Positions 14,893 through 63,772 of a stretch of 64,000 nt of DNA are shown piece by piece; within the stretch, counting starts at the first letter, position 1; the number at the start of each line of letters is the position of its first letter. Source of the DNA: a virus. The notes beneath the pieces are model-generated. The model was given only the letters and a program-made list of their open reading frames with translations. It was not told the DNA's origin and ran no database searches. Position numbers and translations under genes: made by a program. The stretch is from positions 1 to 64,000 of the IMG/VR virus record IMGVR_UViG_3300028590_000015. The stretch is one strand, 5' to 3'.

Positions 14893-14898
14893 GGGCGC

Positions 14899-15126: not shown

Positions 15127-15129
15127 CCC

Positions 15130-19708: not shown

Positions 19709-19792
19709 GCGCCGACGAGGTCAAGTTCGCCATGCAAAGGGGGCTGTTGTGATCGACGAGGCGTCGAGCGCGTACTTCTGCGAGGCCTGACC

Positions 19793-21154: not shown

Positions 21155-21615
21155 AGCGCCGCCGCATCAGGCACCCCGACTACCGCAACCCGGTTGCGGC
21201 CGCCATCCTGCGCGCCGGCATCCGCCGCCAGGTGCTGGAGCTGAAAACCGCCGCCGACCTGCAGGCCTGGGACGGCGCCAATGCCGCGCGCCTCGTCAAC
21301 AGCGCGGGCCGCATGGTGTTCGTGGTGGCCCACGCCGCAACGGCCTGTGGCGTGGGCGCGGACGAGCCCGACAGCCGCATCGTGCGCGGCATGGCCGAGG
21401 CCGTCGGGGATCTCGCCGCCGATGGCGACATGGAGCGCCACCGGCCTGCCATCCAGGCCGGGCTCCTGGCCATCGACCGCCTGCTGCCCCGCTGCAACGA
21501 CTGGGCCCTCGGCCTGGGCGCGCAGGAACTCGAGCGCCTGCTGGCCAGCACCGCGGGCATGGGCACCGCAGACATTCACGCCATTTTTTACCCTCAGCAG
21601 GAGACCACGCCTTGA
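21151..21615 (+). CDS. Hypothetical protein (154 aa)
   Basis: ATGA-coupled. Confidence 0.55.
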   Translation: MKRRRIRHPDYRNPVAAAILRAGIRRQVLELKTAADLQAWDGANAARLVNSAGRMVFVVAHAATACGVGADEPDSRIVRGMAEAVGDLAADGDMERHRPAIQAGLLAIDRLLPRCNDWALGLGAQELERLLASTAGMGTADIHAIFYPQQETTP

Positions 21616-24748: not shown

Positions 24749-25495
24749 ATGTGCAACATCTACGGCTCGTTGGACGAAGACCAGCTCGAACTATTCCTTG
24801 GGCTGGATGACGCGCTTTCCTGGGAGCAGCCGACGTGGGCCGAGCCCATCGTCGCCCCGCTCAAGCCGGGGGTGTTCGTGGCCGGCGGCCCGGATCGCCT
24901 CCGCGTGCTGGTGGGCCAGTGGGGAATGATCCCGCCGGACTCCGAGGACCGCGTGCCGCGCGCCAAACCCAAGCCGGGCCAGAAGGTCGGCACTCGCCTG
25001 AGCACCAACAACGCGCGCCGCGAGCGCATGAAGACGGCGTGGACGTTCCGGCGCGCCTGGGCGCGTGGTCAGCGCTGCCTCATTCCGGCCGCTTGGTACG
25101 ACGAGCCCTATTGGGGCATCAGCCATGCAGACCCGATGGCGGCCACCTTCAACACTTGGTGGCGCTTCCGCCGCGCCGATGGTGAGCCCTGGATGCTGGC
25201 TGGTCTGTGGGACGAGTGGACCGACCCGCACACGGGCGAGGTGGTGCTGAACTACACGATGGTGACCCAGAACTGCGACGGCCACCCGGTGCTGGCCCTT
25301 ATGCACAAGCCCGATCCGAAGCTGCCGCCTGACAAGCAGGACAAGCGCGCTGTGGTGCCCATCGAGCGGGCAGACTGGTCCACGTGGCTTCGTGGTGGTG
25401 CCGAAGAGGCCGAGAGCCTGATTCGCGTGCCACCCGTCGAGACCTTGAATCATGGGCCTGCAGATGCAGGGCGCACCGATCGGCTGCCCGTATAG
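24749..25495 (+). CDS. SRAP (SOS-response-associated peptidase, YedK/DUF159) family protein
   Basis: N-term MCNIYG (catalytic Cys2) and overall SRAP-like length and composition. Confidence 0.8.
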   Translation: MCNIYGSLDEDQLELFLGLDDALSWEQPTWAEPIVAPLKPGVFVAGGPDRLRVLVGQWGMIPPDSEDRVPRAKPKPGQKVGTRLSTNNARRERMKTAWTFRRAWARGQRCLIPAAWYDEPYWGISHADPMAATFNTWWRFRRADGEPWMLAGLWDEWTDPHTGEVVLNYTMVTQNCDGHPVLALMHKPDPKLPPDKQDKRAVVPIERADWSTWLRGGAEEAESLIRVPPVETLNHGPADAGRTDRLPV

Positions 25496-47765: not shown

Positions 47766-49790
47766 ATGACCGTTCTGGCCATCAAGGGATTCCGTGGCGC
47801 TGTGCCTCGGTACAGCTCACGCCTGCTGCAGCCCAACCAGGCGCAGCGGGCCTGGAACTGTCGCATCACATCCGGGCGCCTGGACCCGATCAAGGGTCCG
47901 GGCCTCGTCTTTTCTTCCACATTGGCGTCGGACATCCGCACCATGTATCGCTACCGCCACTTCGTTGGTGGAGCGCCGCTGGACAACTGGCTGATCTGGG
48001 CCTCCGATGTGGACGTGCAGCTTTCGCCGCTCGCCAACGACGAGCGAGGCGTTTTCTATTTCACATCCGAGACCTTCGAGCCTCGGGTGTCCTCCTACGC
48101 GCACGCGATCGCGGGCGCTGTCTATCCGAACGCATGGTTTGCGCTCGGGGTTCCCAGCCCGACGGTCGCACCAACTGTGACGCCGTCTGGAGGCACTGCC
48201 GCCGACGAGGAGCGCTCCTACGCCATCACCTTCGCTACTGCCTGGGGCGAAGAGTCGGGGCCGAGCCCGGCATCTGCGCTCGCCACCGGGAAGCCCGACG
48301 GCACATGGGCCCTCAGCAACCTGCAGACGGCACCGCCAAACGGCGGCGCCATCGTGGGCGCGGTGGCCGACAGCCCTGTGGATGGCCAGGTCACGGTGGA
48401 GCTGGATACCGTGTTCGGGCTGGCCGCCCACGAGTCCATCACCGTCAGTGGGGTGGGGGGCATGACCAGCCTGAACACTACGCATCGAATTCTGTCGATC
48501 AACGTGGCCACCAAGAAGGTGGTGGTGAAGCTCGATACGGCCCAGACCTACACCAGCGGTGGCGCCTGGGCTCGCGAGAGCCCGTTGAACACCACGGGCA
48601 TGGTGAAGCGGATCTACCGCACGGCTGGCACGAACCCGGCATTCCTGTTCGCGGCTGAGATCCCTGTCGCGGATACGACCTACAACGACACGGTGCCGGG
48701 CACGATGCTGGGTGAGGTGCTGCCCACCCTTCTGACGCTTCCGCCGCCGAAAAACCTCACCTGCCTGACGCGGCTGCCCAATGGGTGCATGGTCGGCCTG
48801 GCTGGCAATGAGCTGTGCCTGAGTGACCCATATCGTCCGTATTCCTGGCCCATCGGCAATCGCTACAGCTTTTCGGGGCGTGGAGTGGCGCTGTGCGTGG
48901 CTGGAACTTCGGTGATCGTGCTCACCGACAGCTACCCCATCCTTTTTACCGGGAGCGACCCCGAGGTTATGAGCCCGAGCACCATGGAGACTTATGCGCC
49001 GTGCGTGTCCAAGCGCGGCTCGGTCAACGTGGGCGGGGGCAGCATCTACCCCAGCTTCGACGGCCTTTGGCTGGCCACTCCGGCCGGTGTGAAGAAGCTG
49101 ACCCAGAACCTCTACCGCGACAAGGAGTGGGGCGAGCTCAACCCCGTCACGTTCGATGCGGCCTTTCACGACGGCCAGTATTACGCTCAGTACAGCGCCA
49201 ACGACGCGCGCGCACGCATCTGGGTGCTTGATGTGTCGGAGCCGGACAGCACGACCGAGATCGATGAGCAGGTTGGCGCGCTCTACCGGAACGAGTACGA
49301 CGGGCTGCTCTACGTCGCCAAGGGCGCCAAGGTGTTCCAGTGGGATGCCGACAACGGCATGCGCTACGAGTCGGACTGGATGAGCAGGGTGAACCAGTTG
49401 GCCAAGCCTACGACGTTCAACTGCGCCCAGGTGTTCGCTGATTTCAGCGACATCGTGCCGATCGACACAGCGCAGCAGGAGGCGAATGCAGCCTTGCAGC
49501 TCACGCCCATGATGGGCGGTGGGCAGATGGCCGGGCTGGAGATCGGGGTCGCCGAGGTCAATGGCTCGCTGCTGACCCCCATCGTGGTGCAGACCCAGCG
49601 CAAGGTGCAGTTCACCCTCTACCTCAAGGACGTGCCGATCTTCACGAAGTCGGTCACCAGCCAGAAGCCGTTTCGGCTGCCCACGGGGTACAAGGCCGAG
49701 CTGTTCGCAGTGCAGTTGTCGGCCTCGGTGCCCACCTACTCGGTGGCGATGGCAACCTCGATGGAGGAACTCAAGCAGGTGGCGCCATGA
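47766..49790 (+). CDS. Large virion structural protein (674 aa)
   Basis: Size, Thr/Ser/Gly-rich beta composition, SD GGGAG. Confidence 0.6.
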   Translation: MTVLAIKGFRGAVPRYSSRLLQPNQAQRAWNCRITSGRLDPIKGPGLVFSSTLASDIRTMYRYRHFVGGAPLDNWLIWASDVDVQLSPLANDERGVFYFTSETFEPRVSSYAHAIAGAVYPNAWFALGVPSPTVAPTVTPSGGTAADEERSYAITFATAWGEESGPSPASALATGKPDGTWALSNLQTAPPNGGAIVGAVADSPVDGQVTVELDTVFGLAAHESITVSGVGGMTSLNTTHRILSINVATKKVVVKLDTAQTYTSGGAWARESPLNTTGMVKRIYRTAGTNPAFLFAAEIPVADTTYNDTVPGTMLGEVLPTLLTLPPPKNLTCLTRLPNGCMVGLAGNELCLSDPYRPYSWPIGNRYSFSGRGVALCVAGTSVIVLTDSYPILFTGSDPEVMSPSTMETYAPCVSKRGSVNVGGGSIYPSFDGLWLATPAGVKKLTQNLYRDKEWGELNPVTFDAAFHDGQYYAQYSANDARARIWVLDVSEPDSTTEIDEQVGALYRNEYDGLLYVAKGAKVFQWDADNGMRYESDWMSRVNQLAKPTTFNCAQVFADFSDIVPIDTAQQEANAALQLTPMMGGGQMAGLEIGVAEVNGSLLTPIVVQTQRKVQFTLYLKDVPIFTKSVTSQKPFRLPTGYKAELFAVQLSASVPTYSVAMATSMEELKQVAP

Positions 49791-50054: not shown

Positions 50055-50654
50055 GTGACCGTTTCCGCTATTCGTCAGGCACTGGTCGAGCACCTTGGGA
50101 AGGTGCTCACGCCGGACATCGCCATGGCTCTGGAAATGGCTGCTGTGGCCCCGGAAGACCGAAGCATCGACCCCCGCAGTTTCGGTCAACACCAGCATGG
50201 GGACTACACGATCGCCGCGGAGCGCTTCGCAAGCATCGTGGACGAGCTGCACCCGCTGCACGAGGTCCACTGGCTTGAAACCGAGCATTACCGACACGGC
50301 CTTGCGCTGCGGCCGGACTATGCCGGGATGGCCGCCCTGGAGCGCAACGGCCGCGCCATCCAGTTCACTGTGCGCCACGCTGGCCAGCTCGTTGGGAACC
50401 TGCGCGTCTACCTGGGCACGAGCTTGCACACGCAGACCCCCTATGCGAGCGAAGACACCTTGTTTCTGCTGCCCGAGCACCGGGGCGGTTTCCTCGTGCT
50501 CGCGCTCATCAAGTTTGCCGAGGACGCCTTGCGCGCCATCGGGATCGACGAGTTCCGCGTGAACAGCAAGTTGGTCAACAACGCCGACGTGCTCATGCGC
50601 CGGCGCCGCTACACCCCTGCGGCGCTTCAGTTCGTCAAATTCTTCCAGGAGTGA
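50055..50654 (+). CDS. GNAT-fold acetyltransferase-like protein (tentative; start uncertain)
   Basis: LFLLPEHRGGFLVLALIKFAEDALRAIGIDEF resembles GNAT motif A. Confidence 0.45.
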   Translation: MTVSAIRQALVEHLGKVLTPDIAMALEMAAVAPEDRSIDPRSFGQHQHGDYTIAAERFASIVDELHPLHEVHWLETEHYRHGLALRPDYAGMAALERNGRAIQFTVRHAGQLVGNLRVYLGTSLHTQTPYASEDTLFLLPEHRGGFLVLALIKFAEDALRAIGIDEFRVNSKLVNNADVLMRRRRYTPAALQFVKFFQE

Positions 50655-50658: not shown

Positions 50659-51450
50659 ATGTGCTCCGACGCACCAGACCAGAGCGGCGTGAACGCCGCA
50701 GCCATCGCGAACGCGGAGATCTCAAAGGAGGCGCTTGACTTCTACAAGCAGGTGTACGCGGAGCAAGCGCCAGCCCGAGCGGAAGCTGCCGCCGTGGCCA
50801 AAGAAGTCTCGCAGCGCCAGTTGGAGAGTTCCAAGCTCAACGACGAGATCAGCAAGGACTACTGGGACTACCAGAAAAACACGTTCCGGCCACTGGAAGA
50901 AGGCATCGTGGCGGAGGCTCAGGCCTATGACACGGCGGAGCGGCGCGAGGCCGAAGCGGGCACTGCAGTGGCCGATGTTGGAATGCAGGCCCAGGTGGCG
51001 CGCGATGCTCAGACTCGGCAACAGCAGCGCATGGGCGTGAATCCGAACAGCGGGGCTGCGGTCTCAATGCAGAACGTCTTGAGCATTGGAGACGCGGCTG
51101 CCAAGGCGGGAGCCGCTGGTGCAGCGCGCAAGAACGTGGAAACGGTTGGTCGTGCGATGAAGATGGACGCGGCCAGCCTGGGCCGCAATCTCGCATCGAG
51201 CCAAGCCACCAGCGCCAGCGTGGCGCTGAGTGCCGGCGACAGAGCGGTAGTCAACGCCAGCGCTCCACAACAACAAGCACAGAGCGCCGCGAGCATGATG
51301 GGGCAGGGGTTTCAAACCAGCATCAACGGCAACTCGTCGGCGGGGCAACTGTTTGGCCAAGCCGCCAATGCCCAGGCAGGCGCGGACGCGGCAAACGGCC
51401 AGGCTCTTGGCGGCTTGGCGGGCGCGGGCATGATGGCCGTGGCCATCTGA
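50659..51450 (+). CDS. Hypothetical virion/internal protein (263 aa), Ala/Gln-rich
   Basis: Low-complexity coiled-coil-like composition. Confidence 0.5.
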   Translation: MCSDAPDQSGVNAAAIANAEISKEALDFYKQVYAEQAPARAEAAAVAKEVSQRQLESSKLNDEISKDYWDYQKNTFRPLEEGIVAEAQAYDTAERREAEAGTAVADVGMQAQVARDAQTRQQQRMGVNPNSGAAVSMQNVLSIGDAAAKAGAAGAARKNVETVGRAMKMDAASLGRNLASSQATSASVALSAGDRAVVNASAPQQQAQSAASMMGQGFQTSINGNSSAGQLFGQAANAQAGADAANGQALGGLAGAGMMAVAI

Positions 51451-51461
51451 TCGGAGCCGCC

Positions 51462-52877
51462 ATGCAAAGCAGCTACGAGGTTTCGGTCAACGCAGCCACG
51501 CGCGCGGCAGTCGCGAGCGGCATTAACGTGCTCAACGCCTACCTGTTTGGCCAGACGGAGACGGAGCATGTCGCCCGGCTGCTCGACATGATGGACCCTC
51601 CGCCTGGCGCGGTGGTGATCGATGCAGGCTGCGGCGTCGGCGCGGTCGCCGAGGTCATGGCGCAGTTTCGGTCGGACCTACAGTTTGTCCTCGTGAACTC
51701 GAATGCCGAGCAGTTGGCGCGGTGTCCGGCCAGGATGCAGCAGCACCTGTGCAGTTTCGATCAGATGCCGCTCGACGACTGCAGCGCCGATGTGGTGATG
51801 TTCCATTTCTCGATCTGCCACGCGGAAAACTGGAGCGCGGCCGCGCGCGAGGCGTGGCGCGTGCTCAAACCCGGCGGCCTGCTGTTCATCAACGACATGC
51901 AGCGCATGCGCGGCGACAACACGCTTCTGGCCCACACGTTGAAGGCCTACGCGCACCCTGCTGGGGCCGTCGAAGAGGCCGCGCAGCGATGCGGTTTCGA
52001 GCTGGATGCGCTGATCGAGCCAGCACCCGTGGTGGAGCGACTGGCGCAGGCCCTCGATTCGCCTGCCTGGGCAACGGCGCTGCTGTCGGACGTGGCGCCG
52101 GCCGTGTGGCGCTTCACCAAGGCCGTGGCGGCCGGGCCCGTTGCATCAGCCTTCGCGCGCCATCGCCGCATCGGCTTCCAGTTCTCGGGCGGCCGTGACT
52201 CCACCGCGGCGCTGTACCTGCTGCGCCCTTACTGGGATCGCATGACGGTCTACCACCTGGACACCGGCGATCAGTTTCCTGAGACGCGGGCTGTGGTCGA
52301 GGCGGTCGAGCGCGATATGGGGAAACCCATGACGCGGATCGCCGGTGATGTGGAGGCGGTGCGCGAGCAATACGGGCTGGCCACTGACCTGCTGCCCGTC
52401 GACAACACCGCGCTGGGGCGCATGGTTTCCGGCAAGTCCGTGAAACTCATCAGCCGATTCGACTGCTGCTACCTGTCGCTCATGAAGCCAATGCAGGCCC
52501 GCATGGTTGCCGACGGCATCACCCTCGTGGTTCGTGGTCAGCGCGACGACGAGTACCACCAGCCGCCGCTGCGATCCGGCGATGGCGAGGGCGGCATTGA
52601 GGCGCTCTATCCCATTCAGGACTGGACGGGCGACGAAGTCTCGGCATACCTCGTGGCCCGAGGTCTTCCGCTCGCCCCGTTTTACGAGCGCGGCGCGCGC
52701 CGAGCGCCAGAGTGCATGGGGTGCACGGCCTGGTGGGACGAGGGCCGTGCCGCCTACCTGCGCAAATGGCATCCAGTCGCGTTCACCCAGTACCAGCAGC
52801 GCATGGGCGTCGTGAAGAACCAGATCCACCAGCAATACGCCGTCTTGATGGCGGCCGAAAAGGAGACCCAGCCATGA
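51462..52877 (+). CDS. Fusion protein: class-I SAM-dependent methyltransferase (N) + PAPS-reductase-family PP-loop ATP pyrophosphatase (C)
   Basis: N: VVIDAGCGVGAVAEVMAQ (motif I), LKPGGLLFIND. C: FQFSGGRDSTAALYLL (SGGxDS PP-loop) and C-terminal CMGC (CysH/DndC-like family). Confidence 0.75.
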   Translation: MQSSYEVSVNAATRAAVASGINVLNAYLFGQTETEHVARLLDMMDPPPGAVVIDAGCGVGAVAEVMAQFRSDLQFVLVNSNAEQLARCPARMQQHLCSFDQMPLDDCSADVVMFHFSICHAENWSAAAREAWRVLKPGGLLFINDMQRMRGDNTLLAHTLKAYAHPAGAVEEAAQRCGFELDALIEPAPVVERLAQALDSPAWATALLSDVAPAVWRFTKAVAAGPVASAFARHRRIGFQFSGGRDSTAALYLLRPYWDRMTVYHLDTGDQFPETRAVVEAVERDMGKPMTRIAGDVEAVREQYGLATDLLPVDNTALGRMVSGKSVKLISRFDCCYLSLMKPMQARMVADGITLVVRGQRDDEYHQPPLRSGDGEGGIEALYPIQDWTGDEVSAYLVARGLPLAPFYERGARRAPECMGCTAWWDEGRAAYLRKWHPVAFTQYQQRMGVVKNQIHQQYAVLMAAEKETQP

Positions 52878-54517
52878 GCAAAGGCGCAGCCATCGCAAAC
52901 GCGCTCGCACAGGGCATCAACGGCTATTTCCGGGGCATGAACTACACCCTGCAAATGCAGCGCGACGAGAAGGAATCGGAGTATCGCGACGAGCAGCGCG
53001 ATCGCCAGCGAAAGGACGATGCGAAGAAGGACAAGTTGGAAACCGACTTGGCCGACGCCGCCGCGCCGCGCACCACCATGCAGGGCACTGTCACCGAGAC
53101 CGCCGACAACAAGTTCCTGAATGCTGACTCGGCGCAGGCCGCCGCCATGCAGGACACGCTGGCAGCCGAAGCCGAGTTGAAGGGCGAATCGGCGCCCACC
53201 CAGCAGGCCGGCACCGGCGTGGTGGGCACGATGGCGCGCGGCAACGAGATCACGACCGGGCCGGTGGACACGTCCAAAGTCAACAGCTCCGATGCGCGCA
53301 ACGAGCGAGTGCTTGGCGCGCTGCGCAGCAACGGGCAGGTTGAACGCGCCATGAGCATGGAGAGCAACATCCTGGACCAGCAGGCCAAGCGCCTGGGCCT
53401 GGATGTGGCCCAGGCCAAGTTCGCTGACGAGCAGTTCAACCGTAAGCTCACCGAGCGCCTCTCCACGCCAAACTGGGGCGAGGAGGCGGCGAAGATGCTC
53501 GACGAGACCGAGGTGGGCAGTCTCGCTGGCGTGACCGTCACCTCGCGCCCGTCCAAGGACGGCAAGTCGATCGACCTCGTCGGGGTGCGCGACGGCAAGG
53601 AGAAGGTGGTAGGCACGTTTGAGAACAGCGATGCCGGACGCGCCAAGTTCATGCAACAGGTCGCACGCGTGCCGCTCGAAGCCAAGATCGGCTGGATCGT
53701 CGAGTCGGAGAAATCCGCGCGCGAGGAGCAGCGGTGGCAGCAAACCTTCGACTTCAACAAGAAGAAGGAGGAGAACGACCAGCAGTACCGCAACCGCGTG
53801 CTCAGCATCCAGATGGCCCAGGAATCGCGCGCGCGCCAGACGCACGCCCTGGCCATGGAGGACGCCAAGATCCCGCCTGCGGTAAAGCTGCAGGCGCAAA
53901 CGCTGGCCAAGCAAATGGAGACCATCAACTCCGCGCTGTCCAAGGCGATGGCCGAGGGTTCCTTCGACGCGAACAACCCCGCATCTGCGGACCTGATCAA
54001 GCAGCAGCGGGTGCTCGGCTTGAAGTACCAGAACCTGCTCACGCCATACACCCCCGGCGCGCAGAAGAACGCCGACCCTCTGGGACTGGGCGGTGGCGAG
54101 GCGCCGGCTGCTGGTGCGCCTGCTTCGACGCCCGCTGCCACCACCACGACCCAGCAGCCCTCTGCTCCGGTGCCACGCATGGGGATTGGCGGCGGAGCGA
54201 TGCCACCGGCGGCCGCGCCCGCTGCTGCGCCAGCGCCTGCGAAAGAAAAGCCGACCGTCGCCCAGGTGCTCGCAGGCCCCAGCGCCGATCCGACGCTCCT
54301 GGCCAGCGCGCAGCAGAAGGCCCAGGTGGTCGAGCAACTGGCCGGGCAGATCAAGGCCGCGCAGGCCGCCGTGGCCCAGACCGCTCGTGCGAACCCTGCA
54401 GGCGTCGGCCCGGCCATGCAGCAGGTGGCCGCCGCGCGTGCAGAACTCACGAAGGCCCTCGCGGGCATGAACGATCAGCAGGCCGCCCAGGTTCTGGCGG
54501 CTGTCGGACTCCAGTAA
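52874..54517 (+). CDS. Hypothetical virion/internal protein (547 aa)
   Basis: ATGA-coupled; charged coiled-coil N-terminal region, Ala/Pro-rich C-terminal region. Confidence 0.55.
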   Translation: MSKGAAIANALAQGINGYFRGMNYTLQMQRDEKESEYRDEQRDRQRKDDAKKDKLETDLADAAAPRTTMQGTVTETADNKFLNADSAQAAAMQDTLAAEAELKGESAPTQQAGTGVVGTMARGNEITTGPVDTSKVNSSDARNERVLGALRSNGQVERAMSMESNILDQQAKRLGLDVAQAKFADEQFNRKLTERLSTPNWGEEAAKMLDETEVGSLAGVTVTSRPSKDGKSIDLVGVRDGKEKVVGTFENSDAGRAKFMQQVARVPLEAKIGWIVESEKSAREEQRWQQTFDFNKKKEENDQQYRNRVLSIQMAQESRARQTHALAMEDAKIPPAVKLQAQTLAKQMETINSALSKAMAEGSFDANNPASADLIKQQRVLGLKYQNLLTPYTPGAQKNADPLGLGGGEAPAAGAPASTPAATTTTQQPSAPVPRMGIGGGAMPPAAAPAAAPAPAKEKPTVAQVLAGPSADPTLLASAQQKAQVVEQLAGQIKAAQAAVAQTARANPAGVGPAMQQVAAARAELTKALAGMNDQQAAQVLAAVGLQ

Positions 54518-54529
54518 TCGGACGCTCAC

Positions 54530-57500
54530 ATGAACCTCGAAGAAGCCCGCAAGCGCCTGCCCGAACTCGAAGGGCTGAGCGACCCCGCTGCGATCGATGT
54601 GATCCACGAGGTCTACTACCCGCAGATGGACAAGGCCAAGCTGGCGGGCAAGTTGGGCTACAAGGCCCCGCCGGCGCCCGCGCCAGAGCGCAGCACCATG
54701 CGCGCCGCAGGCGACTTAGCGCTGCAGTTCGGTGGTGGTGCCGTGTCTGGTGTGCGCATGATGTCCGACTTGCTGGGGGCGAACAACGCGGTGTCGGGCA
54801 CGCTGCGCAACGCCGAGGACGCCCTGCAGAAACTCCAGAGCGCGGCTGCGCAGGCCGACCAGCAGCAGATCGCCGCCATCATGAAAGAGGCCGAAAGCAA
54901 GGGCTTCGTGGACCAGGTGCTGGCGGGGGTCAAGGCATTCGGCGTGGCGCCTGCGGCAATGGTTGCTCAAGCCCTGGGCACTTCGCTGCCCACCCTGGCC
55001 ACAGCAGCCATTCCAGGCGCTGGGCCCATGGCACTGGCGGCGCGCCTTGGCGCGGCAGGTGCGGTGGGCGCAGGGCAGGGCGCGGGCAACATCAAGGGCG
55101 TCATCTACGACCAGGTGAAGGCAAACCCACTGCCGGGTGAGGCGCCCGAACAGACCGAGGCCCGCGCCGTGGACGCGCAGTCCTACACCGGAGAAAACGC
55201 CGATCAGATCGCGCTGGGCGGTGGCCTTGGCCTGCTCGCTGGTGCCACGGGTATGGAGCGGGCCGTCGGCGCTCTGCGAAACGGTGTCGCGAAGGCCGCG
55301 CCCGGCATGGCCGCGCGCGTGGGCCTCGGCGCCGCTGGCGAAGCCGTGCCGGAGGCCCTGCAGGGTGGCCAGGAGAAGCTGGCGGGCAACCTGGCGCTCG
55401 GCCGCGAGGGGTTCGATGTGGACCCCATGTCGGGCGTCGTGGCCGGCGGCACGATGGAGGCGCTGGCCGGCGGCGTAATGGGTGGCGCAACGGCGCTTCC
55501 TCGACCCGCAGTGCGCACGCCCGACCCGATTTCCCAGGCCGGCGACGCCATTCGATCGGCTGAGGTGGTGCCGGAGTCGGGCCCGATGACCCGCGCGGCC
55601 AACGTGGCCACCGAGATGAAGGCGCAGCAAGCTGAGGCCGACGTCGCTGCGCAGGTGGCCGCGATCGAGCCTGCCGAACCTGCGCCGGTGCCAGCACAGC
55701 CAGTGGCCGACGATCCGGTGGCGCAGCCCGTCGCCGCTGTCTCGCCGGTTGAAGCCGCGCCGGTGGACGCCTCGGACGCTGCCCAAGAGCAGCGGGCCAA
55801 CAACGCGCTGGCCAGCATGGAGCGCCAGGCGCAACGCGACATGCAGAGCATGCGCGATTTCAGCCGGACCACGCCTGCCACCAGCGATGTGCCCGATCCG
55901 TTCGCCGACGTGCCGGTGGCCGGCGGTGCGCCCGCGGCTGCCGCGTCGGGGGATGTCCTGAATCCCAAGGGCGAGCCTTTCAAGACCAGGATGGCTGCGC
56001 AACGTGCCACCAAGAAGACCCCTGGCGATGTCGTGCCCGTCGCGGGCGGCTTCGTCGTTCGCCCAACCATCTCCCAGGATCTCGCCAGTGAGCCCACCCA
56101 AGGAACCCCAGATGCAGCCGCTGTCGCGCCGTTTGACGCGGGCGCAGCGCCGGCAGTGGAGCCCGGTGCCGGGCCCGATGCGGGAGAAGCTGGCGCTGCA
56201 GCGCTTGTTCGACCGGCCGAGCCCGAGCAGCCTGCGGCACTGATCGCGCAGGCCCCTGCCATGCCTGCCGCTGAAAGCGACTGGCAGGTCTTCCCAGCCG
56301 ACACCGAGACGCTCAACGTGCCGCGCGCCGAGATGCCGCAGATCAAGGCCGCGCACCGCGGCGCGATGGTCAATTTCCTCAAGGCCCGAGGTATTGAGCA
56401 CGAGGCCGACGAGGTGGCGGCCAACACGCTCAAGCCCACCCAGGCCGAGTTTTCAATCTCCAAGGTGAAGAAGGCCCAGGACTTCGGCGACCCCGATCGT
56501 TCCATCCTGGTGTCGGCCGACGGCTACGTGGTCGATGGCCACCACCAGTGGATTGCGCGCGGAGCCAACGGCGCCAGCGTCAAGGTGATCCGCCTCAAGG
56601 CTCCGATCTCCGAGCTGCTGCCCGCGGTGCGCGAGTTTCCCAGCTCCACCGTCGATGAAACGACAGCCGATGTCCAGAACGCAACGCAAGAGCCCGCAGG
56701 GGAAGCGGCCCAAGCCGCGAACACTGAAACGACAGCGCCAGCGGGAAGCGATGGAGCCGCCACCGAAGGAGTTTCCCCAGAGGGAAGTTCCCCCGTGGAA
56801 GCCGCTGGGGTGAAGGATGGGGCAGCGCCCGAGTCGGACGCCGCCCACCCCCCGCAGGCGGATGCGTCGCCTCCTCAACAAACCGGCCAGGCTCCTGAGC
56901 CCGAACCCGAGCAGCGCACGCCGGAAAAGGTGGTGGCGCGGCGTAAGCGCCTGATCGCTGAACGCAAGGCCTCCGAGATTGCCTCACCAGCCCAAGAAGC
57001 AACGAAGGAGGCGCCTGCAACGGAGGCGCCCGCCCCATCGAAGCCGAAGGCGAAGCGGCAGACGGCGGCCTCGCGCCAGGCGGAAGCAGAGGCCGCGCGC
57101 GCCGGCTATTTCACCCCTGGTCACGTGGTGCGCGGTTACGGTGGCTTCGATGAGGTGTTGGCGTACAACCCAACAGACGGCGGCGGGTTCAGCGTGACCG
57201 TGCATGAGGTGAAGCGCGTGGGAGACGAATGGCACCGCGTCGGCAAGCCGCAGGACGCGCGCACGCACAGCACGCAGCCCGAGGACCGGCTGCTCAAGAA
57301 CGGCCCATTCGCGCGCCTGTCCTACCGTCGCGCTGGCGAGGTGGTCTACACCAGCCCGCGCGCTGATGGCCAGCCGTTCCCGAATGCCGTTGATCGAGGT
57401 GTCGCGCCGCCTGCGGAGAAGGTCGCCGAGCCTGATCCAGCACCAGCCCCGAAGGCTGAACGAGCGGCCGCTCCAAAGAGCGCCGCACCGGTCAAGATCG

Positions 57501-60500
57501 AGGACTTCGGCGAGAAGCTCGCCGGCGCGCGCAAGGACTACGCCGCGCAGCTCAAGGACGCCGAGGCCCTGGACGTGTCCGCTGTGCCGCTGTCGCAGTC
57601 GTGGCCCGAGCCGGACTACCAGAAGCTGCTGGAGGGCGGCGCCGATCCATTCACCGTGGCGTTCATTCACGCTGCGCGCGATGAGGTGCCGAACAAGCCG
57701 CAGACGGCTTGGAAGCTCAAGGGATGGGTGCCGATGGTGAATGCGCTTCGCGGCATGTCGCACATGCTGCTGGCGGGCCGTGCCACGAGGCAGTCCTTGA
57801 CGGACATGCTCAGCCGCGCCGACATGCGCAGCGTGCGCGATGGAGTCGCCAGCCGCGCCGAGCTTTACGAGGCTGTGGGGCACGACCGGTCGCTTAAAGG
57901 CCTGTCGTTCGCTGAGCACCACTACTCGCTCTACAAGGGCCAGCCGAACGTGCGGAAATGGGTTGTCTCGCAGCGCTCGAAGTCCACTGCTTTCGGCAAC
58001 TGGCCCCGCGAGCTGGCCGTCGGCGATACCAAGGCGGCCATGCTGGAGCAGTTCACGGCGAAGCTGGTTGCTCAGGACATCAATGGTGTCAGCGCCAAAG
58101 CCAAGCCCAGTTTCGTGATCTACGGCAAGCGCGGCCAGAAGGGCGCGTTCATCGGGAAGAAGATCGGGCGCGAGTACATCGACCTGCACAAGGCCGACGA
58201 CGTCGTCGCCGCGCGACGCTACATGGCCGAGAACACGGCCGCGCTGGAGAAGGCGCTGGAGCGATACAAAGAAACCCCGTTCGAGCGGAAGTCGGAGAAT
58301 GCCCCCCGTGTTGGTGGCGACCACCGCAATGGCGCGCCGGTGACGCCCGAGGTTTTTGGCGACACCTTCGGTTTCCGTGGCGTGCAGTTCGGCAACTACG
58401 TGGAGCAGGGTCGGCGTCAGTCGGACCTCAACGAGGCGTTTGACGCCCTGATGGACATGGCCGCCGTGCTCGACCTGCCGCCGCGGGCACTCTCGCTCAA
58501 CGGGCGGCTGGGGTTGGCCTTCGGCGCGCGTGGCAAGGGCGGGAAGAACGCCCCAGTCGCGCACTATGAGCCCAGCAGCGTGGTGATCAACCTCACCAAG
58601 GGCGGCGGGCCCGGCAGCTTGGCGCACGAGTGGTTCCACGCCATGGACAACTATTTCGCCAAGGAGGGCGGGGATATCGGGTTCATGACCGACGCAGCAC
58701 GCGGCGACGCGCTGCGCGCGGAGATGCGCGAGGCGTTCATGGTCATCAAGCGCGCGATGAACCAGGGCGAACTCAAGAAGCGTTCGCTGGAGCTGGACAA
58801 GCGCCGCTCGAAACCGTACTGGTCCACATCGCTGGAGATGGCAGCAAGGTCGTTTGAGAGCTACGTGATCGCGAAACTCTACGACCAGGGCGCGGCCAAC
58901 GACTACTTGGCCAACGTGGTCAGCCCGGAATACTGGGCGGCCGAAGAGGCGATGCGCGAGGTGTTCGAGGGCAAGAAGGCCGGGCCGACCTTTCCCTACC
59001 CCACGGTGGACGAGATGCCGGCGTTGCGCGCAGCGTTCGACGACTTTTTCAAGGTGGTCCAAACCCGCAAAGATGACGATGGCAAGGTGGCCATGTTCAG
59101 TCGCGCGGAAGGGGCGCCGAAGGGCATCAGCCCGGCCCAGGCGTCGAGCATCGTCAGCGCGCTCAGCAAGCGTTGGGCGAACGCACCCGAGGTGGTGGTT
59201 GTTTCCAGCATCCAGGACGAAGCGGTCCCGGTCGAGGTCCGCGAGCATGACCTTGAGCAACGAAGCCTTGGCGCCAGTGGCGAGCCGGAAGGATTCTGGT
59301 ACGACGGCAAAGCCTACGTGGTGGCTGGCGCGCTGAATGGCCCTGCGGACGTGGTGCGCGTGCTATTCCACGAGGCGCTCGGCCACTACGGCCTGCGTGG
59401 CACGTTCGGCGAAGGTCTGACCCCCATCCTGAAGCAGTTGATCGCCATGCGGCGGCCCGCCGTCGAAGCGAAGGCAGCGCAGTACGGCCTGCAGATGAGC
59501 AACGAAGAGCACCGGATGCAGGCCGCCGAGGAAGTGCTGGCCGAGATGGCTCAAAGCCGTCCAGGGCTCGGCTTCGTGAAGCGCGCGATCGCAGCCGTTC
59601 GCGCGTGGCTGCGCACGCACGTGCCCGGGTTTGCGAGCATGAAGCTCACCGACACGGACATCATTTCCCAGTTCATCCTGCCCGCGCGCCGGTTTGTCGA
59701 GAATGGCGCTGCGCGCCAGCAGGGGGGCGTCGAACCCGCCATGGCGTTCAGCAAAGCCGAGCGCAATGCCCTGGACGAGATCAGCCGCATGGACGAGATG
59801 TTCGCCGTGCCGAAGTCCAACCAGTTGACCCTGGAGGGCATCTTTGCTGACCTGGCGCCGCAGATCCAGGTGAAGCGCGGGCATGCCATGGGCACGCAGA
59901 CCACCTACCGGCTCACGTTGCCAATCGCGAACAAGGGCGATGGGTTGATCACGGCCACGGTGACGGTGCGAGAGCCGAACCCCTATGGCGCGAGTGTCTA
60001 TGGGGTGGAGTTCGACGCCGAGAACGAGATCATGGAGGCCTCTACGGTGCGCCCGGGGGAAAACCCAGCGGACCTGTCGCCGGACATGGCGGATGTGTGG
60101 ATCGATGTCTCCAGCCTGCCCCAGGGGTCCGGCTTGGGCGAGATCATCTACAGTGCGGCCGCCAATTTCGCGCACAACACCGGGCGGGTGTTCATCGGCG
60201 ACCCTAACGGGTTGAGCGCTGTCGCGCTGCGCCGCCGCACTGAGCAGATGATCTCCAGCGCATTGAAGTTCGGCACGACCGACCACCTCGCGCCCCATCC
60301 CGACCAGGTGAAAGGTGACACCGCCGCCGGCGTGCCGGCGCTGCGGTGGGTCTATGGTGACTCGGAGGGCAACATCGAGCGCATGATTGACGTGAGCCTC
60401 CAGTCCATCGAAAATGCCCTTCCTTCCGCGAAACTCATCGGGTATGACGCTGCCAGCAACAAGTTCTTCCGCATCGACACCGGCGCTCGCTTGCCTTTCC

Positions 60501-63500
60501 GATCGGCAATTGCTGGCGTGGTCAATGCGCAGAGTTTGGGCAGGGCTATCGACGGGCGACGACCTGATGGCCTGGGCCGAGCAGCCGACCGAGCAGGACA
60601 AGGCGTGGATGCTGGAGCAGCAAGCGCGGGATCAGCGGGTTGGCGTACTGTTGCGCGAGCTGCACTATTTCGGTACCTCCGAGAGGCCCAGGGCGTGGCG
60701 GCCGACGGAGCAGACCGAGGAAGCCTTCTGGACCGATTGCGCGATGCGGGCGCCCGGCTTGGACGAGAAGGCCCAGTTGCAAGCGGTGGCGCGTCTGCGG
60801 AACCCATCTTCTACAGCCGTAGCGCGGGCAACAGCAACGGCCTGAGCGCCGAGACGGGGGCGCGTTTCAGCCGCTCCCTCACCGAATCGATCAACAACGT
60901 CCGCAGCATGGCGCTGCCGGCCGGCTACGTCGTCAACGACCTGTTCCAGTCCACCGGCAAGCTGTCGTGGTGGAACAAGACGGTGGGCACGATGTACAAC
61001 CTCGCGCAGCGCGAGCGCGACTTCAAACCGGTGTTCGACAAGGCGCAGGAGTTTCTGAACGACGTGGCGTTCTACGCCGCCGAGGCCTCCAACCTGGCGC
61101 CCAAGATCTTGCCCAAGCTGGAAACGCTCAAGGACATCACGAAGTCGCCCATTTCGGCCGCCGACAATAAGGCCATTTCCGCGCCCATCTTTGAAGGGAC
61201 GCTCACATGGATGCGCGACCCCTCGACGCGCAAGCCCATCACCATGGAAGAGGCCGAGGCGAAGGCCGCCAGCATGACCACCGAGCAGAAAGCCGGTGAG
61301 CTGGTGCGTAAGGGCATGCTCGCGCCCGAGGTGCTCAAGATGTGGCAGGGTCAGCCGGTGGATCAGTACACGGCCATGGTGTCCGACCGGTACGAGCGGG
61401 ACATGCTGAACGCCGGCATCGTCTGGACCGACGCCGAACTCAAGGGGCAGTTCAAGCTGAGCGATGACCAGGTGGCGCTCTACCGCGAGTTTCGGGCGGC
61501 AGTGGACAAGAGCCTCTCCACCCTGGCGATCGCCGATATGGTGCGCTTCGGTGGCCAGGACGTGCAGCCGGTGCGCGAGCTGGCGCTGGAAGCCGAAAGC
61601 GTGGATGCCGCGGCGAAACTGTTGCGGGACTTCCTGCTCGCTGAGGCCGAGGCGGACCCGGCGCGCAAGCGCGTCCTGACCGACACCGCCGACCGCATGC
61701 TGGACAAAGCGGCGAAGGCGAACAGCCTGATGGAGCGCGGCTACGCGCCCCTGTCGCGATTTGGGCGGTACTCGCTGGACGTGGTGGATGCCGGCGGCGA
61801 GCGCGTGTACTTCGGGCTGTTCGAGTCCCAGGCCCAGGCCAACAAGATGGCGCGCCAGATGCGCGGCAACTTCCCCAAGGCCTCGATCACCCAGGGCACG
61901 GTGAGCCAGGAGGCCTACAAGATGTTCGCCGGCGTGTCGCCTGAGACTCTGGAGCTGTTCGGCCAACTGGTTGGCCTGGAGGCGAAGGGCGATGGTGCAC
62001 TGAACGAGGTGTTCCAGCAGTACCTCAAGAACGCGAAGAGCCAGCGCAGTGCGATGAAGCGCCTGATCCAGCGCAAGGGCATCTCCGGTTTCAGCGAAGA
62101 CCCGGGCCGCGTGCTGGCCGGCTTCGTCTACTCGAATGCCCGGCAGACTTCGAGCAGCCTGCACATGGGCGAGCTGGCCACTGCCGTCGACGAGATCCCG
62201 AAGACCAAGGGCGAGCTCAAGGACATGGCGGTCAAGCTCAACGACTATGTGAAGAACCCCCAGGAGGAGGCGCAGGCGCTGCGCGGTCTGCTGTTTGCCC
62301 AGTACCTGGGCGGCTCGGTGTCGTCGGCGCTGCTCAACGCCCTGCAGCCGGTGCAGGTCACCTTTCCGTGGCTTTCGCAGTTCGGGGGCGGCATCAAGGC
62401 TGCCAGCCGCATGAAGCGCGCCATCAGCGACGTGCTCGCTCGCCGCGAACTGGAGCCGACCCTGGCCAAGGCCTTGAAGAAGGCCGAGGAAGACGGCGTG
62501 GTGAGCCCGCAGGAGGTGTTCCAGCTCCAGGCCCAGGCCGCAGGTCGCGCACCGCTGCTGACGAGCGATGGCACCCGCCTAGGCGCCGCCGGCGCGGCCG
62601 CCAACAACACGCTGTCGCGTGTCACGCTGGCCTGGGGCAAGCTGTTCGGCGCGGCCGAGCAGTTCAACCGCCGCTCGACCTACATCGCGGCGTATCGCAC
62701 GGCGGTGGAGCAGGGCATGGGCGACCCGGCCAAGTTTGCCGAGCGCGCGGTTTACGAGACCCAGTTCGTCTACTCCAAGGCCAACCGGCCGCAGTGGGCC
62801 CGCGGTGCCGTCGGCGCGACCCTCTTCACCTTCAAGCAGTACAGCATCAGCTACGTGGAGCTGATGCACCGCATGTACACCCAGGGCGGCCCCGAGGGCA
62901 AGAAGGCCGCGCTGCTGGGCATCGCGGTGCTGTTCCTGATGTCCGGGCTGGGTGGGCTGCCCTTCAACGACGATCTGGAGGATCTGATCGACGGCTTCAT
63001 GCAACGGGTGATGAACCGCAACTTCAACACCAAGCAGGCGAAACGGGAGTTTTTCACCAACCTGCTGGGCGCCAATTTGGCCAACTTCCTGGAGCGCGGA
63101 GTTTCCGGGCTGCCGGGCGCGCCCATCGACGTGTCGGGCCGGCTTGGGCTGGGCAACCTCATTCCTGGCACCGGCGTGTTTCAGAAGAAGGACGATTACA
63201 GCCGCGACCTGCTGGAGATCGTCGGCCCGGCCGGAGACTTCGCGAAGCGCGGTGGCCAGGCTGCCGGCAAGGCGCTGCAGGGCGAGGTGCTGGGCGCTCG
63301 CGGCGCGTTGGCCACCGTTTCGCCTGTGGCCTCGCGCAACGCCATCAAGGGCTGGGAGATGGCCACCACCGGCATGTACCTGGATGACCGAGGCCGCAAG
63401 GTGCTCGACTCGAGCGGCATGGATGCCCTGTTCAAGTCCATCGGCATCCAGCCAGCCGGCGTAGCCCAGGTGCAGGAATCGGTGTTCGAGGTGCAGCGCC

Positions 63501-63772
63501 AGATCTCGCTCAACAAGATGCGCGAGACCGAGATCGCGAACAAGTGGGCCATGGGGGTGTTCCGCAAGGACTCCGACCTCGTCCGTGAGGCGCGGAGTGA
63601 GCTGGCCGCCTGGAACCGCGACAATCCCAGCACACCCATCGTGATAAAGATGCCTCAGATCCTCAAGCGCGTGCGCCAGATGAACCTCAACAAGGCCGAT
63701 CGCATCGCCAAGACCGCGCCCACCGAGATTCGGAGCCAGGTGCGCGATGCGCTGCGCGAGGCTCAGCGATGA
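54530..63772 (+). CDS. Giant (3080 aa) polyvalent virion protein: Ala/Gly/Pro-rich N-terminal region, ParB-like nuclease domain, two HExxH zincin-like motifs, long C-terminal region with a TM-like segment
   Basis: ParB motif at about 56290-56600 (LKPTQAEF...ILVSADGYVVDGHHQWIARG); HEWFH at 58625-58639; HEALGH at 59369-59386; uninterrupted 9.2-kb ORF with uniform codon usage. Confidence 0.85.
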   Translation: MNLEEARKRLPELEGLSDPAAIDVIHEVYYPQMDKAKLAGKLGYKAPPAPAPERSTMRAAGDLALQFGGGAVSGVRMMSDLLGANNAVSGTLRNAEDALQKLQSAAAQADQQQIAAIMKEAESKGFVDQVLAGVKAFGVAPAAMVAQALGTSLPTLATAAIPGAGPMALAARLGAAGAVGAGQGAGNIKGVIYDQVKANPLPGEAPEQTEARAVDAQSYTGENADQIALGGGLGLLAGATGMERAVGALRNGVAKAAPGMAARVGLGAAGEAVPEALQGGQEKLAGNLALGREGFDVDPMSGVVAGGTMEALAGGVMGGATALPRPAVRTPDPISQAGDAIRSAEVVPESGPMTRAANVATEMKAQQAEADVAAQVAAIEPAEPAPVPAQPVADDPVAQPVAAVSPVEAAPVDASDAAQEQRANNALASMERQAQRDMQSMRDFSRTTPATSDVPDPFADVPVAGGAPAAAASGDVLNPKGEPFKTRMAAQRATKKTPGDVVPVAGGFVVRPTISQDLASEPTQGTPDAAAVAPFDAGAAPAVEPGAGPDAGEAGAAALVRPAEPEQPAALIAQAPAMPAAESDWQVFPADTETLNVPRAEMPQIKAAHRGAMVNFLKARGIEHEADEVAANTLKPTQAEFSISKVKKAQDFGDPDRSILVSADGYVVDGHHQWIARGANGASVKVIRLKAPISELLPAVREFPSSTVDETTADVQNATQEPAGEAAQAANTETTAPAGSDGAATEGVSPEGSSPVEAAGVKDGAAPESDAAHPPQADASPPQQTGQAPEPEPEQRTPEKVVARRKRLIAERKASEIASPAQEATKEAPATEAPAPSKPKAKRQTAASRQAEAEAARAGYFTPGHVVRGYGGFDEVLAYNPTDGGGFSVTVHEVKRVGDEWHRVGKPQDARTHSTQPEDRLLKNGPFARLSYRRAGEVVYTSPRADGQPFPNAVDRGVAPPAEKVAEPDPAPAPKAERAAAPKSAAPVKIEDFGEKLAGARKDYAAQLKDAEALDVSAVPLSQSWPEPDYQKLLEGGADPFTVAFIHAARDEVPNKPQTAWKLKGWVPMVNALRGMSHMLLAGRATRQSLTDMLSRADMRSVRDGVASRAELYEAVGHDRSLKGLSFAEHHYSLYKGQPNVRKWVVSQRSKSTAFGNWPRELAVGDTKAAMLEQFTAKLVAQDINGVSAKAKPSFVIYGKRGQKGAFIGKKIGREYIDLHKADDVVAARRYMAENTAALEKALERYKETPFERKSENAPRVGGDHRNGAPVTPEVFGDTFGFRGVQFGNYVEQGRRQSDLNEAFDALMDMAAVLDLPPRALSLNGRLGLAFGARGKGGKNAPVAHYEPSSVVINLTKGGGPGSLAHEWFHAMDNYFAKEGGDIGFMTDAARGDALRAEMREAFMVIKRAMNQGELKKRSLELDKRRSKPYWSTSLEMAARSFESYVIAKLYDQGAANDYLANVVSPEYWAAEEAMREVFEGKKAGPTFPYPTVDEMPALRAAFDDFFKVVQTRKDDDGKVAMFSRAEGAPKGISPAQASSIVSALSKRWANAPEVVVVSSIQDEAVPVEVREHDLEQRSLGASGEPEGFWYDGKAYVVAGALNGPADVVRVLFHEALGHYGLRGTFGEGLTPILKQLIAMRRPAVEAKAAQYGLQMSNEEHRMQAAEEVLAEMAQSRPGLGFVKRAIAAVRAWLRTHVPGFASMKLTDTDIISQFILPARRFVENGAARQQGGVEPAMAFSKAERNALDEISRMDEMFAVPKSNQLTLEGIFADLAPQIQVKRGHAMGTQTTYRLTLPIANKGDGLITATVTVREPNPYGASVYGVEFDAENEIMEASTVRPGENPADLSPDMADVWIDVSSLPQGSGLGEIIYSAAANFAHNTGRVFIGDPNGLSAVALRRRTEQMISSALKFGTTDHLAPHPDQVKGDTAAGVPALRWVYGDSEGNIERMIDVSLQSIENALPSAKLIGYDAASNKFFRIDTGARLPFRSAIAGVVNAQSLGRAIDGRRPDGLGRAADRAGQGVDAGAASAGSAGWRTVARAALFRYLREAQGVAADGADRGSLLDRLRDAGARLGREGPVASGGASAEPIFYSRSAGNSNGLSAETGARFSRSLTESINNVRSMALPAGYVVNDLFQSTGKLSWWNKTVGTMYNLAQRERDFKPVFDKAQEFLNDVAFYAAEASNLAPKILPKLETLKDITKSPISAADNKAISAPIFEGTLTWMRDPSTRKPITMEEAEAKAASMTTEQKAGELVRKGMLAPEVLKMWQGQPVDQYTAMVSDRYERDMLNAGIVWTDAELKGQFKLSDDQVALYREFRAAVDKSLSTLAIADMVRFGGQDVQPVRELALEAESVDAAAKLLRDFLLAEAEADPARKRVLTDTADRMLDKAAKANSLMERGYAPLSRFGRYSLDVVDAGGERVYFGLFESQAQANKMARQMRGNFPKASITQGTVSQEAYKMFAGVSPETLELFGQLVGLEAKGDGALNEVFQQYLKNAKSQRSAMKRLIQRKGISGFSEDPGRVLAGFVYSNARQTSSSLHMGELATAVDEIPKTKGELKDMAVKLNDYVKNPQEEAQALRGLLFAQYLGGSVSSALLNALQPVQVTFPWLSQFGGGIKAASRMKRAISDVLARRELEPTLAKALKKAEEDGVVSPQEVFQLQAQAAGRAPLLTSDGTRLGAAGAAANNTLSRVTLAWGKLFGAAEQFNRRSTYIAAYRTAVEQGMGDPAKFAERAVYETQFVYSKANRPQWARGAVGATLFTFKQYSISYVELMHRMYTQGGPEGKKAALLGIAVLFLMSGLGGLPFNDDLEDLIDGFMQRVMNRNFNTKQAKREFFTNLLGANLANFLERGVSGLPGAPIDVSGRLGLGNLIPGTGVFQKKDDYSRDLLEIVGPAGDFAKRGGQAAGKALQGEVLGARGALATVSPVASRNAIKGWEMATTGMYLDDRGRKVLDSSGMDALFKSIGIQPAGVAQVQESVFEVQRQISLNKMRETEIANKWAMGVFRKDSDLVREARSELAAWNRDNPSTPIVIKMPQILKRVRQMNLNKADRIAKTAPTEIRSQVRDALREAQR

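Follow-up and report, generated by a model that had tools for sequence, protein, structure and literature searches.

Positions 1 to 64,000 of the IMG/VR virus record IMGVR_UViG_3300028590_000015, the 64,000-nucleotide stretch analysed here and hereafter called the window, carry a gene that fuses an S-adenosylmethionine (SAM) methyltransferase to a domain of the 3'-phosphoadenosine-5'-phosphosulfate (PAPS) reductase superfamily. The methyltransferase is of the small-molecule type, and the second domain combines a canonical ATP pyrophosphatase PP-loop with the cysteine set of [4Fe-4S] reductases. We present this fusion as a well-defined candidate for a new chemistry of modification or counter-defence. 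Annotations of phage 'PAPS reductases' routinely make them sulfur-metabolism morons; the sequence argues otherwise for this clade, which includes the gene of the therapy-relevant Bcep22-like Burkholderia phages and that of the GP4-like Ralstonia phages. The gene and its parts are as follows.

51453-51456, plus strand: GGAG ribosome-binding site, 6 nt before the ATG of the fusion gene, read from the sequence
51462-52877, plus strand: fusion gene, 471 aa, N-terminal SAM methyltransferase and C-terminal PAPS-reductase-like, putative Fe-S PP-loop domain
51462-52145, plus strand: methyltransferase domain, aa 1-228, class I Rossmann fold with lid, resembling small-molecule methyltransferases
51621-51641, plus strand: SAM-binding motif I, D54-A-G-C-G-V-G60; D54, G56, C57, G58 and G60 invariant in 34 homologues
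52158-52877, plus strand: PAPS-reductase-like domain, aa 233-471, orthologue of Bcep22 gp73
52185-52202, plus strand: PP-loop S242-G-G-R-D-S247, ATP pyrophosphatase signature
52464-52469, plus strand: Cys335-Cys336, invariant in 66 clade members, aligned with the CC of M. tuberculosis APS reductase 7lhr
52713-52724, plus strand: Cys418-x-x-Cys421, invariant, aligned with GCAPCTA of 7lhr

An earlier, sequence-only reading of this locus had proposed a fusion of a class I methyltransferase to a PAPS-reductase-like PP-loop domain, a proposal that would fall if assembly had joined two separate genes. The identical 471-aa protein is present on 5 contigs from at least 3 sequencing samples (ERZ27256788, SRR9007738, SRR8439262). 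In a search of 5.8 billion proteins, the full-length architecture was recovered in more than 120 distinct clusters at 46-85% identity, several of the homologues coming from complete Comamonadaceae genomes (Variovorax, Polaromonas, Rhizobacter and Xenophilus). These contigs and homologues exclude an assembly artefact, a frameshift or the joining of separate genes, and both domains score above the curated Pfam cut-offs. The motifs DAGCGVG and SGGRDS and the late Cys pair picked out by the sequence-only reading are present and invariant across 34 homologues. The open reading frame (ORF) has a GC3 of 0.83, typical of coding sequence, in a genome of 65% GC, and it lies in a tight operon, its TGA stop overlapping the start codon of the following gene (ATGA); a scan for promoters and terminators revealed no enrichment over shuffled sequences. 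The AlphaFold2 model of the fusion (pLDDT 92.6, pTM 0.83) predicts both domains and their packing confidently.

We then surveyed how the two domains are coupled among relatives. Most of the 147 best relatives of the C-terminal domain (111) stand alone, and 21 match the methyltransferase domain of the window (E down to 1e-47), at least two of them (P0141 and P0142) in reverse order, with the PAPS-like domain first. A further 14 carry other N-terminal extensions, which in 4 cases are a CxxCxxCC metal-binding domain; in P0138 and P0178 this domain (PF03692) takes the place of the methyltransferase, and one extension-bearing homologue carries a pyridoxal-phosphate (PLP) enzyme domain of Cys/Met metabolism. 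The CxxCxxCC and PLP-enzyme extensions may hint at sulfur or redox chemistry. Among IMG/VR contigs, the methyltransferase-first fusion was found in about 35 loci, whereas contig L031 and similar ones encode the PAPS-like protein followed by a separate, translationally coupled methyltransferase gene with a 4-nt overlap, and contig L048 encodes the fusion in reverse order. The two partners thus occur in three arrangements, fused in either order or as coupled neighbours. On a neighbour-joining tree of 165 PAPS-like domains, a rough tree in which the 'alone' state can hide adjacent genes, linkage to a methyltransferase is dispersed over the branches and changes state at least 21 times. The methyltransferase appears dispensable, since many close relatives, up to 65-66% identical, lack it, and we read the PP-loop enzyme as the constant core and the methyltransferase as its frequent but dispensable tailoring partner.

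Identity of the two domains

The C-terminal domain belongs to the PAPS_reduct superfamily. PF01507 matches residues 239-414 (E 1.2e-15, 58.4 bits against a cut-off of 22.5), PHROG 424 (PAPS reductase) matches the fusion protein with an E-value of 5.9e-40, and the fold is the adenine-nucleotide alpha-hydrolase fold of CysH, APR, CysD and FMNAT. Its nearest neighbours in sequence and fold are adenosine-5'-phosphosulfate (APS)/PAPS reductase, FMN adenylyltransferase and CysD, with APS reductase the closest in fold. The SGGxDS signature of PP-loop ATP pyrophosphatases is present; throughout the fusion family and the wider clade, S242, G243, G244, D246 and S247 are fixed or almost so, and position 245 is R or K. 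In 66 diverse members of the clade, strict invariance is confined to C335, C336, C418, C421 and one Gly. In a profile alignment to the M. tuberculosis APS reductase 7lhr, the CC of the clade falls on the CC of the reductase and its DCxxCTA on GCAPCTA. The CC...CxxC set of the [4Fe-4S] APS reductase subclass, which provides the ligands of its cluster, is therefore present by alignment, and cluster binding is predicted. The C-terminal Cys pair that had been called typical of the CysH/DndC/BrxP family is real as a pair but does not mark a CysH; with C335-C336 it makes up the set that aligns to the CC...CxxC of APS reductase. The invariant C335-C336 pair itself was absent from the motif list of the sequence-only reading.

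The resemblance does not extend to the residues expected of a sulfonucleotide reductase. By contrast with the [4Fe-4S] APS reductases (P. aeruginosa 2goy, M. tuberculosis 7lhr), the phage protein ends its Cys complement with C421, the second Cys of the CxxC, and the alignments of 34 homologues and of 66 clade members show no invariant Cys beyond that motif. The essential nucleophile of CysH and APR is the Cys of the C-terminal ECGLH motif, downstream of the CxxC, and sulfate assimilation is thus unlikely. Whereas the loop is degenerate in APS reductase and reads SSSFG in E. coli-type CysH, the clade has the canonical, ATP-cleaving SGG[RK]DS. Moreover, an invariant Leu replaces Lys144 of APS reductase, the Lys that follows the CC pair and contacts the sulfate, making a sulfonucleotide substrate unlikely. 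The curated NCBIfam models of sulfonucleotide reductases all score far below their cut-offs (TIGR02055, 46.2 against 235.3 bits; TIGR00434, 25.7 against 165.1; PRK02090, 40.7 against 154). With no catalytic Cys, a canonical PP-loop and family scores below cut-off, identity as CysH or APS reductase was rejected, and the domain is predicted to be unable to act as a sulfonucleotide reductase by the known mechanism.

The clade is small, since a HMMER scan of 1.84 billion representatives yielded only 769 relatives of the C-terminal domain at E<=1e-3. It is also distinct within phages: a single predicted viral structure comes close to it (TM 0.83-0.90), and other phage 'PAPS reductases' lie at TM ~0.5. 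In tblastn searches of deposited phages, the C-terminal half matches proteins of Bcep22-like Burkholderia and GP4-like Ralstonia phages at 42-49% identity. Annotated members of the clade include the 'PAPS reductase-like proteins' Bcep22 gp73 and its counterpart in Ralstonia phage GP4 (Lessievirus and Gervaisevirus; PHROG 424), which are orthologous to the C-terminal domain at 40-49% identity, share its SGG[KR]DS, CC and CxxC motifs and, unlike the fusion, are ~242 aa long and devoid of a methyltransferase. As judged from sequence, the fusion gene is a fused form of Bcep22 gp73. Two unfused relatives, JC1 gp65 (PMC9144972) and CSP3 orf41 (PMC10269572), have been interpreted as sulfate-assimilation morons, an interpretation against which the sequence features of the clade argue; the unfused gene of Bcep22-like phages is known and annotated, and probably mis-described.

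The sequence-only reading had likened the domain to the CysH/DndC/BrxP family. DndC, SspD and BrxP, sulfurtransferases of DNA phosphorothioation, have in common with it the PAPS_reduct superfamily, a SGGKDS PP-loop, a [4Fe-4S]-type Cys set and roles in phage-host conflict; for the DndC ATP pyrophosphatase, SGGKDS and an essential [4Fe-4S] centre are reported, the motif being described as adenylation-specific (PMC6435447). The phage domain is much smaller (240 aa), however, and hidden Markov models (HMMs) do not bear out membership. DndC models from PADLOC and NCBIfam gave no match at E<=1, the SspD model matched residues 16-88 of the domain only (E 2.5e-6, 25 bits), and the BrxP model reached 23 bits with a best stretch of 39 residues (aa 159-197 of the domain). 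DndC, SspD and BrxP identities were rejected on these absent or short, weak matches, and no SspB, SspC or BREX type 4 partner gene was found among the window ORFs scanned. The [4Fe-4S]-dependent PP-loop thiolases (TtuA, NcsA and Fe-S LarE) belong to another subfamily (ATP_bind_3/NAD_synthase) with different cluster motifs and with extra tRNA-binding or Zn domains.

The N-terminal domain is a class I SAM-dependent methyltransferase, with a Rossmann fold, motif I and a Methyltransf_11 (PF08241) match at residues 54-143 (E 1.1e-16, 61.7 bits against a cut-off of 21.2). Profile matches among solved structures were PEAMT (phosphoethanolamine N-methyltransferase), TleD and RebM, and Foldseek with the model returned SpnF, TleD, MitM, RebM and the sarcosine/dimethylglycine methyltransferase SDMT (E 1e-13-1e-14 to TleD, SpnF and MitM); AtmM and geranyl-PP C-methyltransferase are further small-molecule neighbours from these structure searches. 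All of the top 50 Foldseek fold matches are small-molecule methyltransferases or a Trm112 partner. DNA methyltransferase families of Pfam and NCBIfam are absent from the matches of the fusion protein, and with fold neighbours that are not DNA methyltransferases either, identity as an N6A, N4C or C5 enzyme was rejected; the idea that this half is of the DNA methyltransferase type does not hold. The best NCBIfam match is the DVU_1556 methyltransferase family, at 65 bits against a cut-off of 155, on which a literature search found nothing. C119 was considered as an ArsM-like As/thiol-binding Cys and dropped, the alignment reading placing it at the 'xLH' after strand beta-4 and away from the position of the ArsM Cys. 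In tblastn searches, the N-terminal half matched no deposited phage genome at E<=1e-5.

Position within the virion module

The gene lies among virion genes, with the following neighbours.

47766-49790, plus strand: internal virion protein resembling Bcep22 gp67 (phrog_511, E 1e-126), kept in related loci
50055-50654, plus strand: GNAT acyltransferase (phrog_1249 acetyltransferase, E 1.3e-8; weak Pfam Acetyltransf_1), counterpart of Bcep22 gp69
50659-51450, plus strand: virion structural protein resembling Bcep22 gp70 (phrog_8003, E 6e-46), upstream neighbour in most related loci
52874-54517, plus strand: 547-aa protein, positional counterpart of the virion protein Bcep22 gp74; its start overlaps the stop of the fusion gene
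54530-63772, plus strand: giant polyvalent ('DarB-like') protein, 3080 aa, with Pfam LPD37, LPD5 and LPD1

Gene order, PHROG matches and synteny confirm the location that had been read from the sequence, among internal-virion genes and next to a giant protein. The order (internal virion protein, small ORF, GNAT, virion protein, PAPS-like gene, virion protein, giant protein) is that of the Bcep22-like late module from gp67 to gp75, as found by comparison with Bcep22, GP4 and about 35 viral loci. In both Bcep22 and GP4, the PAPS-like gene occupies the same slot, preceded by a GNAT and a virion protein and followed by a virion protein and the DarB-like giant. A giant ORF of more than 2000 aa, extending past the locus end, starts 1.3-2 kb downstream of the PAPS-like gene in loci with this synteny. 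Bcep22, GP4, a Variovorax prophage, about 35 IMG/VR contigs and a lineage of 31% identity all retain the slot beside virion proteins and a giant ORF. The GNAT slot, two genes upstream of the PAPS-like gene, is likewise the same in Bcep22 (gp69) and GP4 (annotated acyl-CoA N-acyltransferase). Its position is conserved over deep divergence; tblastn detects the GNAT in only some loci, and it may belong to the same functional module as the PAPS-like gene. Megablast of the 13-kb region against deposited phages returned no match.

More distant lineages preserve a comparable setting. In the prophage of Variovorax sp. PBS-H4, the fusion is followed by an SLT-domain protein and then by a 4381-aa polyvalent protein (13434-21410 of locus L003) with matches to Acb1, an Eco57I-type methyltransferase, a helicase and RadC, a set that differs from the domains of the giant protein in the window; the giant neighbour is conserved in position and modular in content. 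In a group of ~36-kb viral contigs (L038-L057), a stand-alone PAPS-like gene (for instance at 7977-8735 of L043) lies upstream of genes for a 626-aa protein and then a 716-aa protein with an N-terminal glucosaminidase, a peptidoglycan hydrolase, a setting that once more resembles that of ejection proteins, in another type of phage. A lineage that is 31% identical (L072-L078), some of whose contigs bear HMP-style IMG identifiers, likewise encodes the PAPS-like protein on its own (7926-8732 in L073), followed by a gene for a 504-aa protein and, in L073, by a giant ORF of more than 2138 aa starting at 10246; neither the 504-aa protein nor the giant ORF has a Pfam match.

Virion proteomics of phage JC1 detected the flanking proteins and the DarB-like protein, and did not detect the PAPS-like enzyme (PMC9144972). 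This absence suggests that the product of the PAPS-like gene is a non-structural enzyme encoded within, and co-expressed with, a module of injected proteins.

In Bcep22, GP4 and JC1, the counterpart of the giant protein bears the annotation DarB-like antirestriction protein, and in JC1 it is virion-associated (PMC9144972). A ParB-like nuclease domain had been attributed to the giant protein of the window by the sequence-only reading, an attribution that we could not support: ParBc_2 reaches E 0.16 and 12.6 bits, against a Pfam cut-off of 23.6, and neither phmmer nor a 12-sequence profile found a ParB among solved structures in the PDB, which leaves the analogy to DndB or IbrB without support. 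The segment probably meant, residues 585-708 (56282-56653), is the most conserved part of the giant protein across the phage group (44-63% identity, Bcep22 gp75 included), with the invariant motifs PRxEMPQ, LKPTQxEFS and DGHHQ. Its resemblance to ParB is at the level of motifs only (LKPTQ...DGHHQ), and it matches no Pfam family significantly and, by sequence, no solved structure; a ParB/Srx-like domain that is very divergent, or a domain not yet described, may be present here. At 54000-56000, where the giant protein has its low-complexity N-terminal part, rich in Ala, Pro and Gly, the GC content rises to 0.71 and gives rise to several long spurious antisense ORFs, such as 54716-56401 on the minus strand.

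Proposed chemistry and its alternatives

We propose that the gene encodes a bifunctional, late-expressed enzyme. Its C-terminal domain, an APS-reductase-fold PP-loop ATP pyrophosphatase of the [4Fe-4S] type, would use ATP to adenylate an oxygen of the substrate. The Fe-S cluster would then help to swap the adenylated oxygen for sulfur or for another nucleophile, as proposed for DndC and by analogy with TtuA/NcsA-type thiolases, in which sulfur replacement has been shown. The SAM methyltransferase would in turn tailor the same substrate or the product, for example by S- or O-methylation. Fused or paired, the two enzymes would be co-transcribed with the injected internal-virion proteins and with the DarB-like polyvalent anti-restriction protein of Bcep22-like temperate podophages, so that a modification made late in infection on phage DNA, or on a nucleotide-like molecule, would allow the restriction-type defences of the next host to be evaded. 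That the target is phage DNA or a nucleotide-like molecule, and that the purpose is counter-defence, we advance tentatively, as a reading that is plausible and somewhat short of probable. It is suggested by the genomic context, by the DndC-like catalytic features and by the known PAPS-reductase-Dam fusion of a Vibrio phage; as the sequence-only reading had suggested, modification or anti-defence is a more plausible role than metabolism.

The Vibrio phage protein p0018 confers Dnd resistance, as shown genetically (Piel et al., 10.1101/2021.05.05.442762), and some anti-defence operons regulated by Aca contain phage PAPS reductases (PMC13551039). At ~475 aa, p0018 also combines a PAPS-reductase domain and a methyltransferase in one phage protein. 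Its domain order is opposite, however, its PAPS domain is not close, its methyltransferase is a Dam-type DNA adenine methylase instead of the Methyltransf_11 small-molecule type, and it is encoded in an early or variable region instead of a virion module. The domain combination is therefore less unusual than first thought, given this known fusion and the unfused gene annotated in Bcep22-like phages. Our literature search returned no description of a small-molecule-type methyltransferase fused, in either order, to an Fe-S APS-reductase-fold PP-loop domain in an ejection and anti-restriction module.

Several observations weigh against a counter-defence modification of DNA or nucleotides. Both domains most resemble small-molecule enzymes, the fusion methyltransferase is not of a DNA methyltransferase class, and the phage encodes a separate Dam-type methyltransferase. 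The proteins of the family are acidic, with a median pI of 5.4 among fusions and 5.8 among stand-alone forms, and contain no recognisable DNA-binding domain. A partial scan of the window ORFs found no DndA-, DndD- or DndE-like partner and no sulfur-donor gene. The missing DndC match and the many close relatives without the methyltransferase count on the same side, and the unfused JC1 homologue is absent from the virion and is therefore not itself injected.

The strongest alternative is a two-step small-molecule pathway in which the PP-loop domain would adenylylate or thiolate a metabolite, nucleotide or cofactor and the methyltransferase would methylate it. Such a pathway would make or destroy a defence signal, a cofactor or a nucleotide analogue, for example, and would not modify a polymer. 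It would suit the nearest sequence and fold neighbours of both domains, which act on small molecules, and a protein that is acidic, compact and without a nucleic-acid-binding module; the giant neighbours of relatives even carry small-molecule counter-defence domains such as Acb1. We nevertheless consider it unlikely, if still deserving attention: no candidate pathway or partner genes were found, a strictly conserved position within an ejection-protein operon is unusual for a metabolic gene, and the Leu in place of Lys144 disfavours a sulfonucleotide substrate.

Alternatively, the enzyme could act on proteins, installing a post-translational modification, together with the GNAT, on the injected proteins encoded beside it (counterparts of gp70, gp74 and the giant gp75) before packaging. 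The gene always lies between virion or ejection protein genes and is translationally coupled to one of them, the JC1 virion contains the flanking products and lacks the PAPS-like enzyme, and a RimL-like GNAT belongs to the same cluster (PMC10269572). PP-loop enzymes can modify proteins, as illustrated by Cap9-CdnD (9nto). Set against this are the failure to identify a conserved acceptor motif and methyltransferase neighbours that are not protein methyltransferases. To our knowledge, no PAPS-reductase-fold enzyme modifies proteins, and we regard this possibility as improbable.

We hold in equally low regard a more specific form of the DNA hypothesis, in which the Fe-S PP-loop enzyme, with its optional methyltransferase, would install an undescribed modification on phage DNA just before packaging, without DndA, DndD, DndE or Ssp machinery. 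The mark may be a base carrying a thio or methylthio group, or a phosphorothioate-like backbone group that is S-methylated. If true, this would constitute a minimal one- or two-enzyme sulfur-based DNA modification system protecting a widespread group of temperate podophages.

The protein might instead be a non-catalytic or competitive mimic of DndC or SspD, poisoning phosphorothioate-based restriction complexes of the host and thus acting as an anti-Dnd or anti-Ssp factor. Such a role would be in line with the Dnd resistance conferred by the Vibrio phage fusion and with the weak similarity to SspD and BrxP. However, there is no DndC HMM match, and no Vibrio phage is among the tblastn matches of the fusion protein at E<=1e-5, which places the fusion in a different clade. 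In addition, the PP-loop, the four Cys and methyltransferase motif I are invariant over deep divergence, favouring enzymatic activity, so that a mimic is very unlikely. Least credible of all, to the point of being nearly dismissed, is an auxiliary metabolic gene encoding a CysH-like PAPS/APS reductase that would boost host sulfate assimilation, as database names, the published interpretations of JC1 gp65 and CSP3 orf41 and a fold closest to APS reductase would have it, because no Cys follows the CxxC, the PP-loop is SGGxDS and not SSSFG, the CysH/APS-reductase NCBIfam scores are far below cut-off (46 against 235 bits), and the gene has a fixed position in a virion module and is fused to a methyltransferase.

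Whichever substrate is preferred, the pair is a tractable two-enzyme module that can be cloned and has culturable relatives, including prophage-carrying Variovorax strains, and could reveal new nucleic-acid or protein modification or counter-defence chemistry and correct a widespread annotation.

Other features of the window

The window is that of a temperate phage or prophage. It encodes an integrase and a cI-like repressor, together with a RecE-like exonuclease, TerS, TerL, a P22-type portal and a major capsid protein; a tRNA scan of all 64,000 nt found none. Three features outside the virion module are listed here.

238-1272, minus strand: integrase, temperate-phage marker
14168-14839, minus strand: cI-like repressor, temperate-phage marker
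18674-19492, plus strand: D12-class (Dam-type) N6-adenine DNA methyltransferase (PF02086, E 4.6e-19), in the early/replication region

The Dam-type enzyme is an orphan phage DNA methyltransferase, distinct from the fusion. A recombination module on the minus strand (6365-7507 and 9193-11400) comprises the RecE-like exonuclease (735 aa) and an exonuclease-associated protein whose C-terminus matches FtsK/SpoIIIE-like winged-helix PHROGs. Finally, a gene at 24749-25495 (plus strand) encodes an SOS-response-associated peptidase (SRAP) protein, of the type that crosslinks to abasic sites. Two small ORFs separate it from the small terminase gene, ~1.1 kb further downstream; a DNA-damage-tolerance factor is unusual at such a site.

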